DNA of 14,466 nt, from assembly GCA_016185505.1 (NCBI GenBank), contig JACPNL010000011.1, positions 1 to 14,466 on the forward strand. The letters are read 5' to 3'. Below the pieces are notes generated by a model, which saw only the letters and a list, made by a program, of their open reading frames with translations, was not told where the DNA came from and ran no database searches. The translations under genes and the position numbers were made by a program. The DNA is from Candidatus Yanofskybacteria bacterium (GTDB lineage Bacteria; Patescibacteriota; Minisyncoccia; 2-02-FULL-40-12; GWA2-44-9). This document shows, piece by piece, positions 1-13,537 of this stretch. How positions within the stretch are numbered: the stretch's first letter is position 1; the number at the start of each line of letters is the position of its first letter.

Positions 1-882
1 GGGAAGAATTATCTCTACATTCCCCACGGCCCGGTAGTAGATTTTTCAAATGCGCAAAGCGCAAAGCCGGAGGCAATTGAAAAATTCACTACCGGGCACG
101 GGCCGGAGATGTTGACTAAAAATTTTCAAGTTCAAGTTAAGAACGAGGTTGATAATTTTATGCGGTATCTTAAAAAGCTGGCAAGAGAAGAAAAATCAAT
201 TTTTGTGAAAATGGAACCTGCTTCCGATGTCGTTACGGAGACAATTTTCAGAAAAGGAATGAAGCGGTCAAAAAAAGAAATCCAGCCAGCAAAGTCAGTT
301 ATCCTTGATCTTTTCTTACCGGAAGATGAACTTTTGGCGCGGATGCACCACAAGACGAGGTATAATATCCGTCTCGCTGAGAAAAAAGGCCTGTGGCTGG
401 AAGAGTCAACCGACGTTGAAACATTCTGGAAGTTGCTCCAGAAGACCGCGAAGAAGGATAAGTTTTACACTCATGAAAAAAGTTATTACGAAAAACTTCT
501 GTCGTATTTTGCTCACGATCGTGAGAAAAATACGACAGAACTCTCAACACTACTGTTTTTTGTTTATTACAAAGACAAACCAATCGCCGGTGCAATAGTA
601 ATGTCGTATGGAGATACTGCATATTATCTGCACGGAGCGATGGACCGGAGTTACAAAGAACTAATGGCGCCGTATGCTTTGCACTGGGAGAATATAAAAT
701 TCTTGAAGCAAAAAGGATTCAAATACTACGATCTTTGGGGTATTGACGCGCAAAAGTGGCCCGGCGTTACCCGCTTCAAGCTCGGCTGGGGAGGCGATAC
801 AAAAGAATACCCCGGCTCGTTCGACATCCCTGTCTCAAAATTTTGGTATTTAATGTATAACCTTGCCAGAAAGGTATTTTAG
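1..882 (+). CDS. FemAB-family peptidyltransferase (peptidoglycan interpeptide bridge / aminoacyl-tRNA dependent); 5' partial, reading frame open to window start
   Basis: Frame 1 has no stop from position 1 to the annotated ATG at 109 (GKNYLYIPHGPVVDF...), so the gene continues upstream of the window. The C-terminal half carries FemAB-like segments (AYYLHGAMDRSYKELMAPYALHWENIKFLKQKGFKYYDLWGI). Stop TAG at 880-882. Confidence 0.55.
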   Translation, partial: GKNYLYIPHGPVVDFSNAQSAKPEAIEKFTTGHGPEMLTKNFQVQVKNEVDNFMRYLKKLAREEKSIFVKMEPASDVVTETIFRKGMKRSKKEIQPAKSVILDLFLPEDELLARMHHKTRYNIRLAEKKGLWLEESTDVETFWKLLQKTAKKDKFYTHEKSYYEKLLSYFAHDREKNTTELSTLLFFVYYKDKPIAGAIVMSYGDTAYYLHGAMDRSYKELMAPYALHWENIKFLKQKGFKYYDLWGIDAQKWPGVTRFKLGWGGDTKEYPGSFDIPVSKFWYLMYNLARKVF

Positions 883-920: not shown

Positions 921-1337
921 TTGGCCCTTCTTAGATTAGCAGAAGAAAAAGACATTCCCCAGATCAAGAAAATTGCTGACGCGGATAAAAAATGTCTTGG
1001 TTTTATAAGTCGAGCGTGGCTCGGGGCTTCAATTGCAAAAGAGGAACTTCATATTGCCGTTCTTGATGGAGAAGTGGTTGGTTTTATCCGTTGGCACAAA
1101 CGTCGTGATGGAATGATTACCATTTACGATTTGTGTGTTGCCGAAAGATTCAGAAGAAAGAATATCGGCCAACAGCTCGTATCTGTTCTAGGTGATAGTT
1201 ATCTGCGATTAAAGTGCCATCAAGATAATCCGGCCCGCGATTTCTATAAACGTCTCGGCTTTGAAGTAGTGGGACTCGAGACCTCAAAAGGTGGAAGGAA
1301 GCTCAACATATTTGAAAGAAATAACGTCCCATTTTGA
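921..1337 (+). CDS. GNAT-family N-acetyltransferase
   Basis: 138-aa product with a GNAT acetyl-CoA binding pattern (VAERFRRKNIGQQLV ... FYKRLGFEVVG). TTG start at 921 preceded by GGAG at 910-913. The nearest in-frame upstream stop is at 885-887 and there is no ATG before 921. Confidence 0.7.
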   Translation: MALLRLAEEKDIPQIKKIADADKKCLGFISRAWLGASIAKEELHIAVLDGEVVGFIRWHKRRDGMITIYDLCVAERFRRKNIGQQLVSVLGDSYLRLKCHQDNPARDFYKRLGFEVVGLETSKGGRKLNIFERNNVPF

Positions 1338-1338
1338 A

Positions 1339-1364
1339 AAGACCGCAACCGGTCTTTATTTTAT
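1339..1364 (+). terminator. Rho-independent terminator after GNAT gene
   Basis: Stem AAGACCG (1339-1345) / CGGTCTT (1350-1356) with loop CAAC, followed by TATTTTAT. Confidence 0.6.
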
Positions 1365-1367
1365 AAA

Positions 1368-1396
1368 TATATGATATATCATAGTATCATATAATA
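1368..1396. promoter_or_regulatory. Palindromic operator-like motif (ATGATATATCAT + TATCATATAAT) overlapping a TATAAT -10 box, upstream of yerC-like gene
   Basis: TATGATATATCATA is a perfect palindrome at about 1370-1383. TCATATAAT follows at 1386-1394. The same motif recurs at 1881-1897. Confidence 0.45.
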
Positions 1397-1416
1397 GGTC
1401 TTAGTAATTTTACTAT

Positions 1417-1854
1417 ATGAAAGTTAGACCGAGAAAATTAGAAGGCAAGGATAGAATGAAGTATTTGGACACGCTTTATACGGCGATGTCCTCTTTAAAG
1501 TCCAGAGAAGAAATCAAGAGTTTTATGCGGGATTTACTGACAGAGAGCGAAAGAGTGATGCTAGGCCGCAGGATTCTAATAGCCAAGAAACTGTTGGAAG
1601 GCAAACTCTATACAGAGATTATTCAAGAAATGAAGGTGGGTATGGATACTATTATGAGAGTTCACAGGTGGCTTGAAGATGAAAATACCGGCTATGAAAA
1701 AGCCATTAAAGAATTAGACAAAACCCTGAAGGTTCGTGAAGAAAAGATAGAAAAATACAGGAACTATCCTACCACGGAATTCGGCAGGCTAAAAAGAAGA
1801 TACCCCCTACACTTCTTTTTGTTCAACTTATTCGACGAACTAAATAAAAAATAG
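1417..1854 (+). CDS. TrpR-like YerC/YecD family DNA-binding protein (alternative, better-supported start at 1456)
   Basis: LLTESERVMLGRRILIAKKLLEGKLYTEIIQEMKVGMDTIMRV matches the YerC/YecD Trp-repressor-like family. The ATG at 1456 is preceded by AAGGA (1446-1450), and B. subtilis YerC begins at the equivalent position. About 40-aa C-terminal extension. Confidence 0.6.
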   Translation: MKVRPRKLEGKDRMKYLDTLYTAMSSLKSREEIKSFMRDLLTESERVMLGRRILIAKKLLEGKLYTEIIQEMKVGMDTIMRVHRWLEDENTGYEKAIKELDKTLKVREEKIEKYRNYPTTEFGRLKRRYPLHFFLFNLFDELNKK

Positions 1855-1871
1855 TCAGTAGGTTATCATTT

Positions 1872-1897
1872 TATGATACTATGATATATCATATAAT
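1872..1897. promoter_or_regulatory. Second copy of palindromic ATGATA / TATCAT operator-like motif with TATAAT, upstream of Mur ligase gene
   Basis: TTATGATACTATGATATATCATATAAT shares ATGATATATCATATAAT with the site at 1371-1394. Confidence 0.45.
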
Positions 1898-1967
1898 TTA
1901 GTTTTTGTTTATTTTCTTTGTTTATTTTGGTTTTGTTATTCAAAAGTGTTATAAGTAAGTTATTCCT

Positions 1968-3455
1968 ATGTTCAAAGAAGGATTGTTGGACAAAATTTTA
2001 AGAAATATCAAAAAACTGATACCGAAGTCGGTATTTGATTTTTTTGCGCCGGTTTATCATGCTACTTTAGCTTATGTCGGGGCTTTTTTGTACGGATTTC
2101 CATCACGTTCAATGAAGGTCATCGGTGTGACGGGAACTAAAGGCAAGTCAACGACGGTTTTTTTGATAAGTAAGATTTTGGAGGCGGCAGAATTAACGAC
2201 ATCGGAAGGCCAAAGGACTTCCGATGTCAATGTGGAGGAGCGCCCTCCACAAGGCGGGGTGGCGGCAATCGGGTCTCTCGGATATAAAATAAAAGATAAA
2301 GAATGGCCGAATACTCTGAAAATGACAATGCCCGGCCGGTTCAAATTGCAGAAATTCCTGGCCGAAGCCAAAAGAGCCGGATGCAAGTATGTGGTTCTTG
2401 AAGTGACTTCGGAGGGCATCAAACAAAAGCGCCATATGGGAGTAAAATTTGATTGTGCCGTGTTTACTAATCTGCACGAAGAGCATATTGAAAGTCACGG
2501 TTCTTTTAAAAATTACTATAAAGCCAAGCAGGAATTATTCAAAAAGACCTCAAATATTCACGTAATTAATGCCGATGATCCCCGCGTAGATTTGTTTGGG
2601 AACTTTCCGGCAAAGCATAAGATATTTTATGGATTGGAAAAAGGGGATTTGGTTGCCGGCAAAATTCAGTCCACGGAAAAAGGAACATCATTTGAACTTT
2701 ATGGCACGCGCTTTGACACTCATTTGGCCGGAGAGTTTAATGTTATGAATTGTCTGGCGGCGCTGGCGGTGGGGGCGATGTATAAGATTGATTTGCCCGC
2801 GATGAAACCGGTTTTGGAGTCAATTAAATTTATTCCGGGAAGGATGGAGTTCATACAGCGGGAGCCGTTTGGAGTGGTGGTAGATTATGCGCACACGCCA
2901 GATTCTTTGCGAAGCGTTTATCAAACGCTTCGCAAGAATCTGGCGCAACCAACAACCAACCCCGCACCAAGCTTATCCGCTGACCGCCATTCAGAAAGGG
3001 GGCGGGCTTGGAGCGGGGCAGGCAACCGACAACCAACAACAGGAAAATTGATTTGTGTTCTTGGTGCGGCGGGCGGGGGTAGAGATAAATGGAAAAGGCC
3101 CGAATTCGGAAGAATCGCGTCGGAATACTGCGATGAGATTATTTTGACGAATGAAGACCCCTATGATGAAAATCCCCAAAGCATCATCAAAGATATTGAA
3201 AGGGGATTTTCATCGAAATTTTCAATTTTCAATTTTCAATTTTCAAATAAATCCCAATTACCAAATCACAAAATAATTCTTGACCGTCGTGAGGCAATTC
3301 AAACTGCCTTGACAGATGCCGGGGAAGGTGATACCGTTATTATCACAGGGAAGGGTTCGGAGACGTCAATGGCCGTCGCGGGGGGCAGGAAGCTCCCTTG
3401 GTCGGACAAGGATGTCGTCCGTGAAGCTCTTCGACAACAATCCTCCTGCGCATAA
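1968..3455 (+). CDS. Mur ligase family protein, MurE-like (UDP-N-acetylmuramoyl-tripeptide synthetase-like) lacking the canonical N-terminal domain; contains low-complexity in-frame insertions
   Basis: P-loop GVTGTKGKSTT, central domain VVLEVTSEGIKQKRH ... FTNLHEEHIESHG, MurE-type DYAHTPDSL motif, GAAGGGRDKWKRPEFG, C-terminal ITGKGSE. Only about 50 aa precede the P-loop, against about 110 in MurE. Confidence 0.8.
   Translation: MFKEGLLDKILRNIKKLIPKSVFDFFAPVYHATLAYVGAFLYGFPSRSMKVIGVTGTKGKSTTVFLISKILEAAELTTSEGQRTSDVNVEERPPQGGVAAIGSLGYKIKDKEWPNTLKMTMPGRFKLQKFLAEAKRAGCKYVVLEVTSEGIKQKRHMGVKFDCAVFTNLHEEHIESHGSFKNYYKAKQELFKKTSNIHVINADDPRVDLFGNFPAKHKIFYGLEKGDLVAGKIQSTEKGTSFELYGTRFDTHLAGEFNVMNCLAALAVGAMYKIDLPAMKPVLESIKFIPGRMEFIQREPFGVVVDYAHTPDSLRSVYQTLRKNLAQPTTNPAPSLSADRHSERGRAWSGAGNRQPTTGKLICVLGAAGGGRDKWKRPEFGRIASEYCDEIILTNEDPYDENPQSIIKDIERGFSSKFSIFNFQFSNKSQLPNHKIILDRREAIQTALTDAGEGDTVIITGKGSETSMAVAGGRKLPWSDKDVVREALRQQSSCA
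3217..3244 (+). repeat. 4 x AATTTTC heptamer tandem repeat inside Mur ligase CDS
   Basis: Direct reading: aattttc aattttc aattttc aattttc (encodes FSIFNFQFS). Confidence 0.9.
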
Positions 3456-5417: not shown

Positions 5418-6247
5418 TTCGATTAGGGCCCTTACTATTTATCAAGGAAGTAGTTCTTTTTGGCCTTACGCTGGCTCTTGGTCTCTATACCGCTTATTAT
5501 TACTCTTTTTACTTTACCGATCTGGTTCAGAATGGAATGGTGAATTTTACGCCGGCTGATCTGATTATTTTGGCTATTTTGTTCGTCGCTATTTTCTTTG
5601 TGGCGCGGCACAAGAGGGTTGCCCGCTTTTCCTTCAGGTTCTTTCTTATATTGATCGTCTTTTCCGGAACTCAAGTTGTGTTGGGCACTATTCTGCCTTC
5701 GCCTTGGGACTTGTTGTTTGCGGTTATCTTTACTTTAATATTCTCTATCGGTATTAATGTGTTGGTTCACAATCTAGGTATTATTCTTGGAATTGCCGGT
5801 ATTGCGGCTGTATTCGGTCTCTCTATTTCAATTGAGTTCGGGCTTGTCCTGTTGGTTGTTCTTTCTTTATATGACATAGTGGCCGTTTATGTGACAAAGC
5901 ACATGGTGACTATGGCCAGAAGTATGGTCGAAGGCGGTGCGGTGTTTGGATTTTTAATTCCGTTTGAGTTCAAAGGATTTTTTTATGGAAGAGATGAGGC
6001 AAAGGCCGGAATAGGGGAGAATTTCATGATACTTGGTTCGGGAGATATCGGATTGCCGCTTATTTTTGCGGTTTCTCTGGTTAGGGTTTCTCTGATATCC
6101 GCGATAATTACGGCCACATTCTCTTTGCTGGGATTATTTATTACTCACCTTCTTTTTATAAACCAAGGACAGCGAAGGGCAATGGCGGCTTTGCCACCGA
6201 TCGCGACACTTACAATAATTGGTTACCTTGTAACCCAATTATTGTAA
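5414..6247 (+). CDS. Polytopic membrane protein, presenilin / signal-peptide-peptidase-like (A22 family-like) intramembrane aspartyl protease candidate
   Basis: About 8 TM segments. Candidate catalytic motifs sit in TM helices: LSLYDIVAVY (YD), ILGSGDIGLPLIF (GxGD) and AALPPIA (PAL-like). Confidence 0.45.
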   Translation: MIRLGPLLFIKEVVLFGLTLALGLYTAYYYSFYFTDLVQNGMVNFTPADLIILAILFVAIFFVARHKRVARFSFRFFLILIVFSGTQVVLGTILPSPWDLLFAVIFTLIFSIGINVLVHNLGIILGIAGIAAVFGLSISIEFGLVLLVVLSLYDIVAVYVTKHMVTMARSMVEGGAVFGFLIPFEFKGFFYGRDEAKAGIGENFMILGSGDIGLPLIFAVSLVRVSLISAIITATFSLLGLFITHLLFINQGQRRAMAALPPIATLTIIGYLVTQLL

Positions 6248-6388
6248 ATTGACCTAATTATACTAATTAACCTAATTATTCTAAATAATGCCCAATACCT
6301 AATCACCAAATGCCTAAAACAGCTTGGTCATTCGGTCATTAGAATTTATTTAGGTCAATTAGATTAATTAGAACAATTAGAATAATTT
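6248..6388. repeat. About 140-bp AT-rich palindromic intergenic element (copy A) built from 9-bp TAATTNNNC units in inverted arms; MITE-like
   Basis: Left arm ttgacc taattatac taattaacc taattattc taaataat. Right arm atttattta ggtcaatta gattaatta gaacaatta gaataatt. Strongly similar to 13350-13495. It directly abuts the ATG at 6389. Confidence 0.7.
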
Positions 6389-7804
6389 ATGAAACTTACT
6401 TTCTATGGTGGTGCTCGCCAAGTGACCGGAGCCAACTACTTGTTGGAGTTGGGCCCCGACGCAAGGTCGGGGTCAACAACCAAGTTGTTGGTTGATTGCG
6501 GGATGTTTCAGGGTTCAAGGTATGCGGAAGACCTGAACTATGAAAAATTTCCATATGATCCGGCGGAGATTAATTTTATTTTTATCACTCATAGTCATAC
6601 CGACCACGCTGGACGCTTGCCCAAGTTGTATAAAGAAGGATTCAGGGGCAAGGTCGTTGCGACAAACGCGACCCTTGATCTTATCAGAAAAGCTCTGCCG
6701 GACAACTTAAGATTGATAGAACAAGAAGCAAAAGATACTGGACGAGAACCACTGTTCTCTCTTGAGAACTTGGAAGGTGTTCTTAATTTGGTTCAGGGAG
6801 TTGATTATGAGGAAAATATTGAATTAGGTGGTGGTCTTGAAGTTAAATTACATGATGCCGGACACATATTGGGTTCTTCCATCGTGGAAATACGATGGAA
6901 GAACAAATCCGAAATCCGAAATCCGAAATCCGAAAATAATTCGAAACATCTTTACTTTACCGGTGATCTGGGGAATCCCCCGACACCCTTATTGAAATCG
7001 CCTTATTACCCCAATGATGCTGATTATGTCGTTATAGAGTCCGCCTACGGTTCAAGAACTCACGAGGATAAGGCCGAAAGAAAGAATATTTTACAGAAGA
7101 TCATAATTGAAACCATCCAAAGAGGTGGTGTGCTGACGATACCTTCGTTCGCGATGGAAAGAACGCAGGAACTTCTCTATGAACTCAATGGTCTGTTCAA
7201 CGACAATAAAATTCCCAAAGTACCCGTTTTTGTCGATTCTCCTCTGGCTACCAATTTGACCGAGGTGTACAGAAAGCATTCGGATTATTTCAATAAAGAA
7301 ACTATGTATATAATTAATTCCGGTGACGATATATTTAATTTTCCCGGGCTAAAATTCACTCGTACCACCGAAGAATCAAAACAGATAAACGATGTTACTC
7401 CGCCGAAGATAATAATTGCCGGCTCGGGAATGTCTACCGGCGGCCGGATATTGCATCACGAAAGGCGTTATCTGCAGGATCCGAATTCCACTATTCTGTT
7501 CATCGGTTATCAAGTAAAAGGTTCTTTGGGCAGGAGAATTTTGGATGAGGAAAAAGAGGTCAAAATATTCGGCGAAAAAGTTACCGTGAACTGCAAAGTG
7601 GAGGCGATAGGAGGATACTCCGCTCACGCCGACAGCGAAGGGCTTTTGGAATGGGTCAAAACCGCGAACAGCGAAGGTAAATTAAAAAAGGTATTTGTGG
7701 TGCAAGGCGAAGAGGATTCCTCATTGGCTCTCGCAAGAAAAATAGAAAGAGCGCTGGAAATTGATGCGGTGGTGCCGAAGCAAGGGGAAGGGTTCGAGTT
7801 GTAG
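6389..7804 (+). CDS. MBL-fold metallo-hydrolase, beta-CASP RNA-metabolising family (RNase J / CPSF-like ribonuclease)
   Basis: HSHTDHAG (HxHxDH), LVDCGMFQG, a beta-CASP region and C-terminal GGYSAHAD. 471 aa. Confidence 0.8.
   Translation: MKLTFYGGARQVTGANYLLELGPDARSGSTTKLLVDCGMFQGSRYAEDLNYEKFPYDPAEINFIFITHSHTDHAGRLPKLYKEGFRGKVVATNATLDLIRKALPDNLRLIEQEAKDTGREPLFSLENLEGVLNLVQGVDYEENIELGGGLEVKLHDAGHILGSSIVEIRWKNKSEIRNPKSENNSKHLYFTGDLGNPPTPLLKSPYYPNDADYVVIESAYGSRTHEDKAERKNILQKIIIETIQRGGVLTIPSFAMERTQELLYELNGLFNDNKIPKVPVFVDSPLATNLTEVYRKHSDYFNKETMYIINSGDDIFNFPGLKFTRTTEESKQINDVTPPKIIIAGSGMSTGGRILHHERRYLQDPNSTILFIGYQVKGSLGRRILDEEKEVKIFGEKVTVNCKVEAIGGYSAHADSEGLLEWVKTANSEGKLKKVFVVQGEEDSSLALARKIERALEIDAVVPKQGEGFEL
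6905..6932 (+). repeat. 4 x AAATCCG heptamer tandem repeat inside MBL-fold ribonuclease CDS
   Basis: aaatccg x4 (encodes SEIRNPKSE). Confidence 0.9.
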
Positions 7805-8032
7805 AGCGAAACTATCAAATAATTTTTTACGCCTTACGCTCCATTAACAAATCTTGCAATAATTTATCATTGTTCAGACAAAAATTTAGCACCCGTTCCT
7901 CCCTTCGGGATTTTCCGGCTAAATTTTTGGAAGATTACCTGAACAATTTCTAAATTATCTTGGATTTGTGATAAAGGAGCGTAAACGCTAGAAAAATTAC
8001 TTAACAGTTTCGCTCTTTGGATGCTTTGATTT
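7803..8032. repeat. Long palindromic element C1: about 40-bp inverted arms (GAGCGAAACTNNCAAATAATTTTTTANGCCTTNCGCTCC) enclosing a palindromic cargo capped by a UUCG hairpin
   Basis: Left arm 7804-7842 and right arm 7976-8015 are near reverse complements. The inner pairs ATTAACAAATCTTGCAATAATTTATCATTGTTCAG / CTGAACAATTTCTAAATTATCTTGGATTTGTGAT and AAAAATTTAGC / GCTAAATTTTT flank TCCCTTCGGGA. The start overlaps the TAG stop of the MBL gene. A second copy lies at 9695-10109. Confidence 0.7.
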
Positions 8033-9631: not shown

Positions 9632-9694
9632 TTGGTCAAGCCAGCTGAGCTGGCTCAACCCCACTAAATTTTGAGAAAAGGCATACTCTTGCAG

Positions 9695-10109
9695 TAGAGC
9701 GAAACTGCCAAATAATTTTTTAGCCTTCCGCTCCAGGAGAGCAGGATTCAAACTCCCATCGTCTTGAGAGACCCAAAAATGAGATGATTTCTTTGGTGTG
9801 ACGACGAAGATGTAGTTTAACACTACTTCGAGGAGGCACAACAAAGAAAGCGTCCATTTTTGGGCTCCCCCTTGGGGCGGGGCGGACTTACTTATCTGCT
9901 TCGTTGTCCAGATTCCTTCGGAATCGAGGATCCTCGATTGCTTCGCAATCGGGACTCGTCGCTTACGTACCGTTAAGGTACGCATCACTCCTCGCGCCTC
10001 GCATATAAGCAAGTCCGCTCCCGCTCAATTGATGCGAGTTTGAATCCTGCTCTCCTACGTCAACGCTAAAAAATTATCTGACCAGTTTCACTCTCTGGAT
10101 GCTTTGATT
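9695..10109. repeat. Palindromic element C2: same outer arms as C1, carrying a different, nested cargo
   Basis: TAGAGCGAAACTGCCAAATAATTTTTTAGCCTTCCGCTCC (9695-9734) matches the C1 left arm. ACGCTAAAAAATTATCTGACCAGTTTCACTC TCTGGATGCTTTGATT (10062-10109) matches the C1 right arm and tail. Confidence 0.7.
9735..10056. mobile_element. Nested 322-bp element with perfect 21-bp terminal inverted repeats (AGGAGAGCAGGATTCAAACTC ... GAGTTTGAATCCTGCTCTCCT), highly structured interior; MITE-like or structured ncRNA
   Basis: Perfect TIR 9735-9755 / 10036-10056. The interior holds several perfect hairpins: ATTCC-TTCG-GGAAT, CGATTGC-TTCG-GCAATCG, GTACC-GTTAA-GGTAC and the CGAGGATCCTCG palindrome. No ORF. 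Confidence 0.55.
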
Positions 10110-10324
10110 CAATCGATGATGTTGGAAAGAAACAAACTATTCATTCTCAAAATTTAGAGGGGTCTCGCTCCTCAACGCTAATTTTTCCGTGTTTTCCGAT
10201 TTTTCAGCGCTTCTGTGGTTAAAATTACCCAACGGCCTCGCTCCTCGGACGTTTTTATTTAATCGACGCAACAAGGGGTCTCGCTCCTTTGTGTTGTTGT
10301 GCTTGGTATTTTTGATGGGGCAGG

Positions 10325-10354
10325 TTGACAAAGCATAGCCCAATATGCTACAAT
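10325..10354 (+). promoter_or_regulatory. Near-consensus sigma70 promoter for nfeD-flotillin operon (TTGACA - 18 bp - TGCTACAAT) with palindrome AGCATA-N6-TATGCT in spacer
   Basis: TTGACA at 10325-10330. TACAAT at 10349-10354, preceded by an extended -10 TG. Inverted repeat AGCATAGCCCAATATGCT in the spacer. Confidence 0.55.
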
Positions 10355-10440
10355 ATTTTGGAAATCTCGAGTTGCCAGAAGGGCTCTCGAGATGGCAGTT
10401 CGTTCACAACTGTGGAGAGCCACGGAGAGAGGAAGGGGAT

Positions 10441-10968
10441 ATGCCACTGTTTATCGTCGCCGGGCTCATGGGGTTCCTGTTCTTCGTTGGGGCACTGATT
10501 TTCGGTGACCACGACGTCGGGCACGACCATGACTTTGATGGCGACCATGACCATGGAGGGTCGAGCGTGTTTTCGGTCTTCAATGTGTCATGGTTTCTCA
10601 TCGGGTTCGGCGGAATGGGGGCGGTTATCAGGGCCAATGACGTGGGGATGCCCGGAAGCACGATGTCCGGTCTCGCGACCGGTATTGCTTGCTGGGGCCT
10701 CGCTTTCTGCGTCATGCACCTGCTTGCAAAACAGCAGGGTGATTCAACCGTGACAGTCGCACGCATCATGAATGCGACTGGTACGGTCGTGATGTCTATT
10801 CCCGCAAACGGGGTGGGCAAGGTCCAGTGCAGTGTGGCCGGAAGCTTGCAAGAGTTTCTGGCTCGCTCGACGACACCGGTTTCGTTGTCGGAAGGTTCTC
10901 AAGTGAGAATCGTCGGCGATGCCGGTGGTGTGTACTTGGTGGAAGCTCAAACACAAGGAGGCAGGTGA
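10441..10968 (+). CDS. NfeD-like membrane protein (short NfeD / YuaF-like, partner of SPFH-flotillin)
   Basis: Start at the ATG at 10441 behind GAGGAAGGGG. The ATG at 10345 lies inside the -10 box. Two TM helices, a His/Asp-rich loop (DHDVGHDHDFDGDHDHGG) and a C-terminal beta domain. The stop overlaps the SD of the downstream flotillin gene. Confidence 0.65.
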   Translation: MPLFIVAGLMGFLFFVGALIFGDHDVGHDHDFDGDHDHGGSSVFSVFNVSWFLIGFGGMGAVIRANDVGMPGSTMSGLATGIACWGLAFCVMHLLAKQQGDSTVTVARIMNATGTVVMSIPANGVGKVQCSVAGSLQEFLARSTTPVSLSEGSQVRIVGDAGGVYLVEAQTQGGR

Positions 10969-10969
10969 C

Positions 10970-11269
10970 ATGGAGTTTTGGAAACAGCTCTCGGCAAACC
11001 TCGGATGGGTTATCGGAACAGTCCTACTGTTCATAGCCATCCTTGGTTCTCTTCGTTACGCGGCAAGCCGGTACAAGAAAGTGCCGCCAAGCCGCGTCGG
11101 GATCATCTACGGCCGTAAGCAGATCTATGAGATCCCGCAACAGGATGGAACCGTAAAGCAGGAGAAGCTTGGATTCCGCCTGCTCACCGGCGGCGGCGCG
11201 CTTGTCCTCCCGTTCTTGGAAGACTATGCCGAGTTGGACCTAAGCGCTCGACGTGATGATCGACGCTAG
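10970..11269 (+). CDS. Flotillin (SPFH-domain, FloT/YuaG-like) N-terminal fragment - interrupted by +1 frameshift near 11243-11256
   Basis: Strong SD AAGGAGG (10954-10960). MEFWKQ...VLLFIAILG TM helix, then GRKQ...FRLLTGGGALVLPFLEDYAELDLS matching flotillin (RGGGTFVFPVFEEVEKLSLEVM). The frame then runs into RRDDRR-stop. Confidence 0.7.
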   Translation: MEFWKQLSANLGWVIGTVLLFIAILGSLRYAASRYKKVPPSRVGIIYGRKQIYEIPQQDGTVKQEKLGFRLLTGGGALVLPFLEDYAELDLSARRDDRR

Positions 11270-12701
11270 AGGCACAGCTACTGTCGTGATCGGAACCGAT
11301 ACGTCGAGTCTCATCACTGCCGCTCGCAACTTCGAAGGTAAGAAGGAACAGGATATCAACCAGATTGCCCGGGAAAACCTGGAAGGCCAACTGCGGTCGA
11401 TTCTCGGCACCTTGACGGTTGAAGACCTGATCGGTGAGCGCAAGAAGCTCAATGAGGCGGTCTTGGAAGGTGCGGAGAGTGAGCTTCTGAAGCTCGGTCT
11501 GCGCATTTCCATCCTGACCATTCAGGAGATCACTGACCAGGTTAAGTACATCGAATCGCTGGGCAAAAAGCGTACCGCCGAAGTTCAGCGGGATGCTACT
11601 ATCGGCGAAGCCGAGGCGCAAAGCAAAGCCAAGATCGCGGCAAGCAACGCCACGAAAGAAGCCGAGACTGTCGCCGCGCAGAACGAAGTCAAGATCGCCG
11701 AGGCCAAGAAGGAGCGTGACGTTCAAGTTGCGCAATTCAAGGCATTGACCGATCGCGAAAAGGCGATTGCCGAACAGGCAGGCGCCATCGCGGCGGCCGA
11801 AGCGGACAAGACAGTGCGTCAGAGGAAGGTTGAGGCCGAAGCGGCCGAGACCACTGCGCGTATCCAACTCGCCGATCAGGAGACTGCTCGTGTCGAGAAG
11901 GAACTGCAGTTCCAGGTCATCAAACCGGCCGAAGCGCAGAAGCAGGCCGCGGTTATCAGGGCCGAGGGAAACAAGCAGACAGGTATCCTCGACGCCGAAA
12001 CCAAGAAGAGGCAACAGGTCATTCAAGCTGAAGCGGCTTTCGAAGCAGCTGCCAAGCAGGCCGACGCGACTCGAACCAAGGCTGAGGCTGATGGTGATGC
12101 TGCGGCAGCAATCGGCAAGGGCGACGCCGAAGCCGTACGTCTAAAGCTCACAGCTGAAGCCGATGGCGAGAAGGCAAAGCGTCTTGCCGCCGCCACGGGT
12201 ACCGAAGCTGAACTGCGGGCGGCTGCATCCGGCAAGGAAGCAGAACTGCTTGCAGAGGCACGCGGTGCTGAAGCAAAGCTCCTCGCAGAGGCCAAGGGTA
12301 AGGAACAGCTGGCTCTCGCGCTTGCCAAACTGGATCAGACAGGCAAACTTCTACAGGTGCTCGACGCAGCCCCCAAGGTTGCAGAGGCCCTGGGCGAAGC
12401 TCTCGCCAAGGCGCTCGGGCCCGACGGCCTTGCCAACGTGTTCGGCCAGATGGCCGCTCCGCTCGGCAGTGTTGACTCGATCCGGATGTATGATTTCGGC
12501 GGGAATGGCCATAACGGTAATGGTGCCGGATCGTTGGCCAAGTATGCCAACATCACACCGGAGCTGTTCTTCAATTTCGTCTCGAAGGCGACGGCACTGG
12601 GTTTCGGGTCTTTGCTCGAGAAGGTCGGGCTGACCTCCGAGATTCTGGACGACATGACAACTTCGGTTTCAACAGGGGCCGATGCATCCGAATCGAAGTA
12701 G
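11253..12701 (+). CDS. Flotillin C-terminal portion (SPFH core, EA-rich flotillin coiled-coil repeats, C-terminal domain); continues the 10970 frame after +1 shift (frame open from 11244)
   Basis: LDVMIDARGTATVVIG...ITDQVKYIESLGKKRTAEVQRDATIGEAEAQSKAKIA aligns with B. subtilis FloT. Long AEA/EAKA repeats follow. Confidence 0.8.
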   Translation: MMIDARGTATVVIGTDTSSLITAARNFEGKKEQDINQIARENLEGQLRSILGTLTVEDLIGERKKLNEAVLEGAESELLKLGLRISILTIQEITDQVKYIESLGKKRTAEVQRDATIGEAEAQSKAKIAASNATKEAETVAAQNEVKIAEAKKERDVQVAQFKALTDREKAIAEQAGAIAAAEADKTVRQRKVEAEAAETTARIQLADQETARVEKELQFQVIKPAEAQKQAAVIRAEGNKQTGILDAETKKRQQVIQAEAAFEAAAKQADATRTKAEADGDAAAAIGKGDAEAVRLKLTAEADGEKAKRLAAATGTEAELRAAASGKEAELLAEARGAEAKLLAEAKGKEQLALALAKLDQTGKLLQVLDAAPKVAEALGEALAKALGPDGLANVFGQMAAPLGSVDSIRMYDFGGNGHNGNGAGSLAKYANITPELFFNFVSKATALGFGSLLEKVGLTSEILDDMTTSVSTGADASESK

Positions 12702-12714
12702 CTCGTTCATTCAT

Positions 12715-12748
12715 AGAGGTCGGGGTAACAACCCCGACCTCTATTCTT
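12715..12748 (+). terminator. Terminator-like 12-bp perfect hairpin after flotillin
   Basis: AGAGGTCGGGGT-AACA-ACCCCGACCTCT followed by ATTCTT (weak U-tract). Confidence 0.5.
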
Positions 12749-12764
12749 AGGAGAGGAGAAAACA

Positions 12765-13220
12765 GTGAAGTACCAACTCACAGAAGGTATTCCGGACGCT
12801 CTCGTGATTCACTGTGCCGATCCGCGTTTTCAGGAAGCCTTCAGAGCCTACCTGAAGAATGATCTCGGTATACGTATGCCGATGATCATAGCGTTGCCTG
12901 GCGTGACCAGCCACTTCGGGATGCAGATGATGTTTCCGAAGAACTGGTACACAGTAAGGTCACACCTCAAGACCATGACAGATCGTCACGATGTGGCACG
13001 AGTCGTCCTTATCAATCACGACGACTGCAAGGGCTACGCCAAGATTGCCGATAAGCTTGGTGGTCTGGTGAAAGTTCCAGAGTGGCAGCGCAAGCACCTC
13101 CATGGCCTGGCAGAGTTTATCAGAAAGGAATATCTGCCTCACGCCTCTTTTGAACTCTACCAAGCGCATATCGTTGAGAAAGGCAGTGTGCGTGAGGTCG
13201 AGTTCGAGAAAATCTTGTAG
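12765..13220 (+). CDS. Hypothetical protein with beta-carbonic-anhydrase-like CxDxR ... HxxC motif arrangement (HCADPRF ... NHDDCKGY)
   Basis: GTG start behind AGGAGAGGAG (12749-12758). 151 aa. The spacing of the Cys-Asp-Arg and His-x-x-Cys motifs resembles the zinc ligands of minimal beta-CAs. The function call is tentative. Confidence 0.5.
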   Translation: MKYQLTEGIPDALVIHCADPRFQEAFRAYLKNDLGIRMPMIIALPGVTSHFGMQMMFPKNWYTVRSHLKTMTDRHDVARVVLINHDDCKGYAKIADKLGGLVKVPEWQRKHLHGLAEFIRKEYLPHASFELYQAHIVEKGSVREVEFEKIL

Positions 13221-13349: not shown

Positions 13350-13495
13350 CCCAATTATTCTAATTATACTAATTATTCTAATTACTCTAAATAATGACTA
13401 ATCCCCAATCATTAAATGACCAAATCGATTTAGTCATTGAGTCGTTGGGATTTATTTAGGTCAATTAGGTTAATTAGAATAATTAGGTTAATTTA
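13350..13495. repeat. Copy B of the about 140-bp TAATTNNNC-unit palindromic element (see 6248-6388)
   Basis: ctaattatactaattattctaattactctaaataatg ... atttatttaggtcaattaggttaattagaataattaggttaatt. The central part contains the near-perfect palindrome AATGACCAAATCGATTTAGTCATT. Confidence 0.7.
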
Positions 13496-13537
13496 TTGCC
13501 CTGTTTGGTTCCTGTGCTTTGTGTTTTAGCTATGTAA

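Follow-up and report, generated by a model that had tools for sequence, protein, structure and literature searches.

A TrpR-family gene of Candidatus Yanofskybacteria is bracketed by matched palindromes that are conserved across Patescibacteria and co-vary with predicted DNA-contact residues of its product

The lambda cI repressor gene lies between OR and OL, operators of its own product, and the distal operator cluster reinforces autoregulation. RAYT transposase genes are flanked by cognate REP palindromes, tens to hundreds of near-identical copies of which are dispersed outside genes with a bias to 3′ ends. Patescibacteria (the candidate phyla radiation (CPR)) have tiny, very compact genomes with few recognisable regulators. 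We analysed a 14.5-kb stretch of a metagenome-assembled contig from Candidatus Yanofskybacteria (Patescibacteria), referred to below as the window, in which a yerC-like gene of the TrpR family (hereafter yerC) is bracketed by two matched palindromic sites. An original prediction, made from the letters of the window, had read these sites as operators through which a dimeric helix–turn–helix (HTH) protein controls its own gene and a downstream Mur ligase gene. We found that the bracket is conserved across Patescibacteria, that its sequence follows the predicted DNA-contact residues of the protein, and that the downstream site belongs to yerC itself.

The closest relatives of the window protein with solved structures are of the HisR type. 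The original prediction described the function of the YerC family as largely unknown; this is outdated, as B. subtilis YerC is HisR, the histidine repressor, and the R. gnavus orthologue binds DNA in vitro (PMC9413887). The window protein is a member of the TrpR family by sequence and by predicted fold. Its start codon at 1417 is set by the conserved N-terminus MKVKPRKL, and it scored 60.2 bits against PF01371 (TrpR family; cutoff 27) and 47.7 bits against TIGR02531 (yecD_yerC, a model of type hypoth_equivalog; cutoff 42.2). An AlphaFold2 (AF2) model with a predicted local distance difference test (pLDDT) score of 78.5 places the HTH in helices 65–72 and 76–87 (HTH span 65–87), followed by a C-terminal helical extension of about 45 residues with three extra helices (92–144). 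Foldseek searches with this model ranked the HisR-type structures 3kor, 3frw and 3g1c best (target-normalised template-modelling (TM) scores 0.74–0.79), E. coli TrpR scoring TM ~0.6, and the same three were also the best sequence matches among solved structures. T78 was invariant and R81 nearly so in our alignment (A1); by phmmer alignment these are the equivalents of the TrpR contacts Thr81 and Arg84, and Asp77 stands opposite the Ala of STATISRV, the TrpR A80 position.

Beyond these shared family matches and structures, the window system resembles HisR in having a palindromic operator-like site of about 20 bp, in the location of that site upstream of its own gene (found for HisR in around half of genomes; PMC9413887) and in the half-site of the window's family, ACTT(G/T)A, which is similar to HisR acTTTA. 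That the protein belongs to the HisR (YerC) functional group is nevertheless doubtful, because it is longer (145 aa with the ~45-aa extension, compared with ~100 aa for HisR; PMC9413887), because Asp replaces the conserved Ala80-equivalent, and because the motif differs and has a shorter spacer: the central spacer of the commonest 18-mer of the family, ACTATGATATATCATAGT, is 2 bp shorter than that of HisR cacTTTAn6TAAAgtg (PMC9413887), and the window sites, (AC)TATGATATATCATA(GT), also depart from the HisR operator consensus. It is doubtful also because no his genes adjoined the window's sites or appeared among the neighbour genes that recur (cluster) at dispersed sites, the set compared here as distinct from 107 singletons, and because two Firmicutes hisR loci, both of Blautia, lacked the bracket, although a sample of two is too small to generalise that the second, 3′ site is peculiar to the system described here. 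Dispersed perfect palindromes are a further difference from HisR. We regard the protein as a distinct, longer subfamily than HisR.

The 12-mer ATGATATATCAT had exactly two perfect matches in the whole window, at 1371–1382 and 1881–1892, one on either side of yerC (Table 1). Allowing two mismatches added one further match, at 7859, where 0.66 matches with up to two mismatches would be expected by chance across the window. The upstream copy is followed by AG and then by TATCATATAAT at 1385–1395, a string whose only exact matches in the window start at 1385 and 1887. The downstream copy runs on as ...ATATAAT to 1897 and is preceded by ATGATAC at 1873–1879; the sequences and positions given in the original prediction for both copies and for this half-site were all correct. 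Both copies are parts of a longer inverted repeat that encloses the yerC open reading frame (ORF), in which 1365–1395 and 1868–1898 are complementary at 29 of 31 positions (94%) and 1371–1390 (ATGATATATCATAGTATCAT) is the exact reverse complement of 1873–1892. The extra half-sites (1873–1878 and 1385–1390) mirror each other and both face yerC. Compared with the widespread 18-mer ACTATGATATATCATAGT, the upstream palindrome with its flanks and the downstream sequence ACTATGATATATCATATA each agreed at 16 of 18 positions, in both cases with the consensus half toward yerC. Starting 7 nt past the 14-bp palindrome, TATAAT at 1390–1395 overlaps the extra half-site, and TATAAT at 1892–1897 overlaps the last 2 nt of the downstream palindrome.

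An orthologue scan with one genome per species yielded 80 loci, all from Patescibacteria-type metagenome-assembled genomes. Conservation of the motif upstream of yerC orthologues, proposed as a check in the original prediction, was found in nearly all 80, in the form of a palindrome centred on ATATAT approximately 0–90 nt upstream of the ATG. The identical, locus-specific palindrome recurred 0–80 nt past the yerC stop (median ~13 nt). We measured this bracketing as the longest exact string, in either orientation, common to the 120-nt upstream and downstream flanks of yerC: the flanks had at least 10 nt in common in 69 of 78 orthologous loci (median ~20), compared with 11 of 133 control comparisons, and the common strings were almost always perfect ATATAT-centred palindromes with a sequence specific to each locus. 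Perfect palindromes 12 bp or longer numbered 315 across 553 kb of loci; 114 of these were centred on ATATAT, and 106 of the 114 lay at yerC ends. This refutes the alternative of a generic AT-rich promoter feature, which the original prediction had named as one that would overturn it. The palindromes include 18-bp and 26-bp classes.

The same pattern held at close range. In the nearest relatives by protein identity (L201, 88%; L202, 85%; L001, 79%), the sites were kept while the surrounding intergenic sequence and the spacing to the start codon diverged. L201 has all four half-sites, ATGATAttATGATATATCATagTATCAT; the downstream extra half-site was kept as ATGATACTATGATATATCAT in L001, L201 and L202, and close relatives carry TAAAAT at the offset of the window's downstream TATAAT. 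The window locus is a local case of a phylum-wide architecture. Our literature searches found nothing relevant on a TrpR-like regulator or such palindromes in CPR and no published description of this architecture, and no regulon of this Patescibacteria group was found described in the searchable literature.

The palindrome sequence changed together with the protein. Core TGATATATCA was paired with Asp77 (in the motif '...VGxDTIxRV...') in 54 of 54 intact cases, and cores CCATATATGG and TCATATATGA with Thr, Ala, Asn or Gly at residue 77 in 9 of 10, and these replacements of Asp77 are found in at least five separate places of a rough neighbour-joining tree. A mutual-information scan of every variable protein column against DNA positions −10 to −4 returned D77 with −4 as the best pair (z = 20), followed by T66 with −9, D77 with −5, T66 with −8, M76 with −8 and I69 with −6. 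Aligned to E. coli TrpR with phmmer, residues 66, 69, 76 and 77 correspond to R69, K72, I79 and A80; of these, R69, I79 and A80 belong to the six TrpR residues known to contact DNA (PMC9413887). In syntenic orthologues with different cores (L043/L047 and L017/L044), all four half-sites had changed together; genomes with two paralogues carry two palindrome types; a rare extra site in L028 has that genome's unusual CC-type core; and a distant TrpR-like paralogue (PF01371) is bracketed likewise.

Binding of both sites by the encoded protein is the best-supported step of our explanation and, judged from sequence, highly likely. The sites are very probably its cognate operators, because the bracket is conserved and the palindrome co-varies with DNA-contact residues; in their conservation, specificity and HTH covariation they behave as predicted for sites of a dimeric HTH protein around its own gene. 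The resemblance to TrpR comprises the fold, the equivalence of the co-varying residues 66, 76 and 77 to R69, I79 and A80, half-site centres about 6.5 bp from the dyad and, on our interpretation, own-gene autoregulation. The 8-bp register of the extra half-sites and the 18-bp and 26-bp classes recall tandem TrpR binding (PDB 1trr, PMC9413887), although as a resemblance only. E. coli TrpR differs in its weak sequence similarity (E ~0.03–0.1), in its operator sequence, and in lacking the bracket architecture and the C-terminal extension.

We think it probable that, taken as a whole, the TrpR/HisR-family protein encoded between the two sites uses both as operators, the upstream one autoregulatory and the downstream one most likely auxiliary or a roadblock. 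A dimer, possibly two dimers in 8-bp register, with or without a ligand, would read the 18–20-bp palindrome centred on ATATAT with residues 66 and 69 of the first HTH helix and residues 76 and 77, where the recognition helix starts, in a TrpR-like manner. Of 59 loci, 15 carried a hexamer resembling a −10 element on the gene side of the palindrome, 16–17 nt from its centre, and none carried one at that distance on the opposite side; many of these hexamers end 6–7 nt before the ATG, the spacing typical of an mRNA with a very short leader or none. In the window, the site covers roughly −32 to −19, the −35/spacer region of the candidate promoter, and the position of TATAAT together with the terminator-like hairpin at 1338–1357 leaves no room for another promoter. 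The upstream site would generally lie over the −35/spacer region of a short- or no-leader promoter, and we infer from this geometry that its occupancy probably represses yerC, that is, negative autoregulation. The autoregulation originally proposed remains plausible to likely in light of −10-like hexamers that lie 13–17 nt from the centre of the palindrome, always toward the gene.

The downstream site belongs to yerC and not to the Mur ligase. It was kept whatever followed: the next gene was convergent in 40 of 74 loci (by crude ORF calls), and a Mur ligase followed yerC in only 9 of 80 loci, each from a relative of the window organism, with a further ORF between the two genes in L007 and L018. 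The original prediction had taken the downstream copy for the operator of a downstream target and had linked the regulator to peptidoglycan precursor synthesis; the first claim does not survive these counts, and the second, whose sole basis is local synteny, finds no support as a general rule. A dedicated regulator combining autoregulation with specific control of the Mur ligase would fit the window and its relatives, where the downstream site lies 17–85 nt before the murE-like start, TATAAT or TAAAAT overlaps the site edge, and FemAB and GNAT genes adjoin. We consider it unlikely, given the retention of the site before unrelated or convergent genes, the rarity of Mur synteny, the lack of any site in front of the window's FemAB or GNAT genes, and the unrelated housekeeping genes beside dispersed sites. 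Only in the window's clade does a murE-like gene adjoin the downstream site; there, with TA(T/A)AAT overlapping the site edge, the bound protein could incidentally gate murE transcription, which we rate as a possibility rather than an expectation.

As the second member of a conserved bracket belonging to yerC itself, the downstream site would most likely be an additional or auxiliary operator or, when occupied, a roadblock where yerC ends. DNA looping between the sites is possible, with no positive support. The parallel with lambda cI, a repressor-type gene between two sites, is a functional analogy only: the spacing here is unphased and gives no signal of oligomerisation or looping, each site is a single palindrome or half-site triplet and not a three-operator array, and the system is chromosomal and phylum-wide. 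As a separate observation, a tRNA-like sequence lies approximately 60–130 nt past the downstream palindrome of yerC in L022, L030, L043, L047 and L063.

Palindromes of the same family also occur away from yerC. An exact scan of Joint Genome Institute (JGI) metagenomes for ACTATGATATATCATAGT returned at least 120 loci, and the counts that follow refer to the matches listed. A yerC homologue lay next to the site in about 15 of 120 matches; the other ~105 sites were mostly intergenic, with 26 inside called ORFs, and their neighbours included ruvA/uvrB, holB, gatA, rbfA, ruvC, folA, lepA, rplK and polA. Extra sites occurred about once per 40–50 kb, which suggests approximately 10–20 palindrome copies per genome. 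T-tracts adjoined 4 of 24 co-directional copies and were not systematic.

The arms of these palindromes are distinctive. Across 256 sites they were perfect for 7–28 nt, and complementarity was random (25–32%) directly past the first mismatch. Where a locus holds two copies, their outer arms can be unlike and yet each perfect (L065, 44/44 bp; L044, 42/48 bp; L040, 34/44 bp). Such arms are longer than the footprint of an HTH dimer needs and are unlike selected RNA stems or intrinsic terminators. A DNA-level process may extend them, for example template switching seeded by the core palindrome.

The gene content between palindromes also varies. L082 has one palindrome (7197–7214) between ruvA and uvrB; the corresponding position of L167 (1580–2076) and L199 holds two palindromes with a 138-aa TrpR-like paralogue between them. 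Identity between the flanks of L082 and those of L167/L199 is 82–88% right up to the sites, a precise presence/absence polymorphism. At L102:7091–7614, palindromes of the same family enclose a 117-aa GFA-family (PF04828) gene, with a third copy about 100 bp further on; non-regulator genes can also be fenced by palindromes.

Further palindromes and repeats were seen in these loci. Another type of palindrome, built on core CGATATATCG (as in CATACGATATATCGTATG), sometimes lies 28–40 bp from a ACTATGATATATCATAGT site (L084:1329, L090:2767, L148:4083, L045:782 and L069:1379) and may be the target of another paralogue. At L165:1880–1960 and 3350–3430, a repeat of about 60 bp that contains a palindrome flanks a 1.5-kb two-gene segment adjoining a type I restriction R-subunit-like gene, possibly a small module that is mobile or part of a defence island.

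Several explanations other than operators could be offered for these palindromes. That they are nucleic-acid hairpins or cruciforms (terminator-like, REP-like or protecting mRNA ends), with their position at yerC secondary, would suit arms that pair perfectly over as many as 28 nt and whose outer parts differ from copy to copy, the mostly intergenic location and 3′-end bias of the dispersed copies listed (19 convergent compared with 6 divergent), and yerC 3′ copies that begin a median of ~13 nt past the stop. We nonetheless hold this to be improbable: T-tracts were found at the 4 of 24 co-directional copies noted above, the fall in complementarity to random levels past the first mismatch is unlike selected RNA stems, long arms are present in divergent promoter regions too (L017, L044 and L065), the hairpins in the window have little stability (−8.5 and −4.5 kcal/mol, the latter matched by shuffled sequences) and fit no Rfam family, and the covariation with HTH contact residues is left unexplained. 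A canonical intrinsic terminator was considered in its own right and rejected, as the window hairpins are AT-rich and weak with no adjoining T-run and the stems end abruptly.

Recombination or cassette-boundary sites, in which the gene and one palindrome form a mobile unit and the HTH protein is an accessory or a selfish passenger, are suggested by the polymorphism between L082 and L167/L199, by the bracketed GFA-family gene of L102 and by the differing genomic context of yerC among lineages; inverted arms around a 6-bp AT centre also recall tyrosine-recombinase core sites. This reading, too, strikes us as a poor prospect, since the main-family cassettes are syntenic among relatives, with no presence/absence case among the loci compared, no recombinase gene stands beside the sites in the window, deletion between 20–38-bp repeats requires no dedicated system, and the covariation indicates that the HTH protein itself reads the palindrome. 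A generic AT-rich promoter feature or chance repeat is scarcely credible: the core does hold −10-like strings, TGATATATC resembles an extended −10 and the intergenic DNA is AT-rich (GC 0.36), but the window has two copies only, the palindrome is near-exclusive to yerC ends across the 80 loci, occurs between convergent genes as well, and changes sequence with the protein. Copy number, exclusivity to yerC ends and the flank test contradict a generic promoter motif or chance, and we rejected it. The likeness to REP/RAYT systems, in a gene flanked by palindromes, a palindrome type that varies with the protein, and dispersed, 3′-biased copies, is again a functional analogy only; the protein is an HTH-only TrpR-like protein and not an HUH/Y1 nuclease, and at the ~10–20 copies per genome suggested above only the core is common to copies, the outer arms being unique. 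A REP/RAYT system was rejected on the HTH-only gene, the density of about one extra site per 40–50 kb and core-only sharing. A broader alternative, that ~10–20 protein-bound perfect palindromes at gene boundaries (mostly 3′), two of them always fencing the protein's own gene, form a genome-wide system of roadblocks or insulators, or of recombining cassette boundaries, with arms produced by template switching, seems to us doubtful, if less so than the hairpin and cassette explanations.

Returning to the operator explanation, its conservation, specificity and protein–DNA covariation are computed directly from the loci, and several observations weigh against it. The data come wholly from metagenome-assembled genomes with crude ORF calls; L029 is the one exception to the Asp77 rule; and the covariation z-scores ignore phylogeny, although a signal so concentrated on HTH contact positions is hard to explain otherwise. 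The upstream palindrome abuts the ATG in several loci, in which the promoter position is ambiguous, and centre-to-centre spacing ranges over 446–586 bp with no helical phasing (Rayleigh R ≤0.10). Among the matches listed, dispersed sites favour convergent (19) over divergent (6) intergenic regions, with 48 in tandem ones, and no promoter-like hexamer was found at a fixed offset beside them; the convergent bias and missing promoter signal make a poor fit to a classical repressor regulon. Many sites are extended to perfect palindromes of 30–56 bp with outer arms that differ between copies.

The bracket defines a family-wide cis element with a candidate recognition code, in which Asp77 goes with G/C at ±4 and residues 66 and 76 with ±8 and ±9. 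It is an unusual self-bracketing gene architecture, kept over large evolutionary distances, and it corrects a tempting tie of the regulator to peptidoglycan synthesis. The 3′-end bias and abrupt-ended arms of the dispersed perfect palindromes misfit a textbook operator; if true, a boundary or cassette role would be considerably more novel than a repressor–operator pair.

Table 1 Features of the yerC locus in the window (positions in nucleotides)
Feature	Position	Strand	Remarks
FemAB-like gene	109–882		Neighbourhood of yerC-like gene
GNAT gene	921–1337		Neighbourhood of yerC-like gene
Terminator-like hairpin	1338–1357	+	Stem of 8 pairs, then T-rich tail ATTTTATAAA; 3′ of GNAT gene
Upstream site	1365–1395		Left arm of 31-nt inverted repeat around yerC; arms 94% complementary
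Perfect 14-bp palindrome TATGATATATCATA	1370–1383		Core of upstream candidate operator
Extra half-site TATCAT	1385–1390		8 bp in register with TATCAT at 1377–1382
TATAAT	1390–1395	+	Candidate −10 of yerC promoter; starts 13 nt from palindrome centre, ends 21 nt before ATG
YerC/HisR-like TrpR-family gene	1417–1854	+	145 aa; PF01371, TIGR02531; conserved N-terminus
Downstream site	1868–1898		Right arm of inverted repeat; 14 nt past yerC stop, 70 nt before murE-like ATG
Extra half-site ATGATA	1873–1878		8 bp in register with ATGATA at 1881–1886
Perfect 14-bp palindrome TATGATATATCATA	1880–1893		Core of downstream site
TATAAT	1892–1897	+	At edge of downstream palindrome; possible −10 of murE-like gene
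MurE-type Mur ligase gene	1968–3455	+	TIGR01085, 336 bits

The hairpin 3′ of the GNAT gene would separate yerC from transcription arriving from upstream. Scans of the window with Rfam (gathering threshold) and ARAGORN gave zero matches. Elsewhere in the window, a 144-nt AT-rich element with internal inverted repeats of the 'taattag' type occurs twice (6247–6390 and 13353–13496; 81% identity), once before a beta-CASP gene and once before a Lon-like region at the window end, and looks like a dispersed intergenic repeat or a miniature inverted-repeat transposable element (MITE). Two MITE-like elements (7801–8031 and 9694–10109) have the termini GTAGAGCGAAACT..AAATAATTTTTT and their inverse in common (88–93%); the second, which matched nothing in Rfam or ARAGORN, contains a 26-nt long-range inverted repeat (9735–9760 and 10031–10056; 96%) and a structured-looking interior. 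Bordered by these repeats, the region 10001–13000 has a GC content of 0.52–0.57, compared with 0.36–0.47 elsewhere, and may have been acquired as an island or result from chimeric assembly. It encodes an SPFH/Band_7 protein (11253–12701) and a putative carbonic-anhydrase-like protein (12765–13220); the Band_7 match covers the profile from position 60 onward, and the ORF at 10919–11269 may encode the missing N-terminus in a shifted frame. Short tandem repeats occur within ORFs, (ATTTTCA)n in the Mur ligase gene (3207–3250) and (GAAATCC)n in the beta-CASP RNase gene (6900–6935), and the Mur ligase also carries a low-complexity insertion at about 2940–3040.

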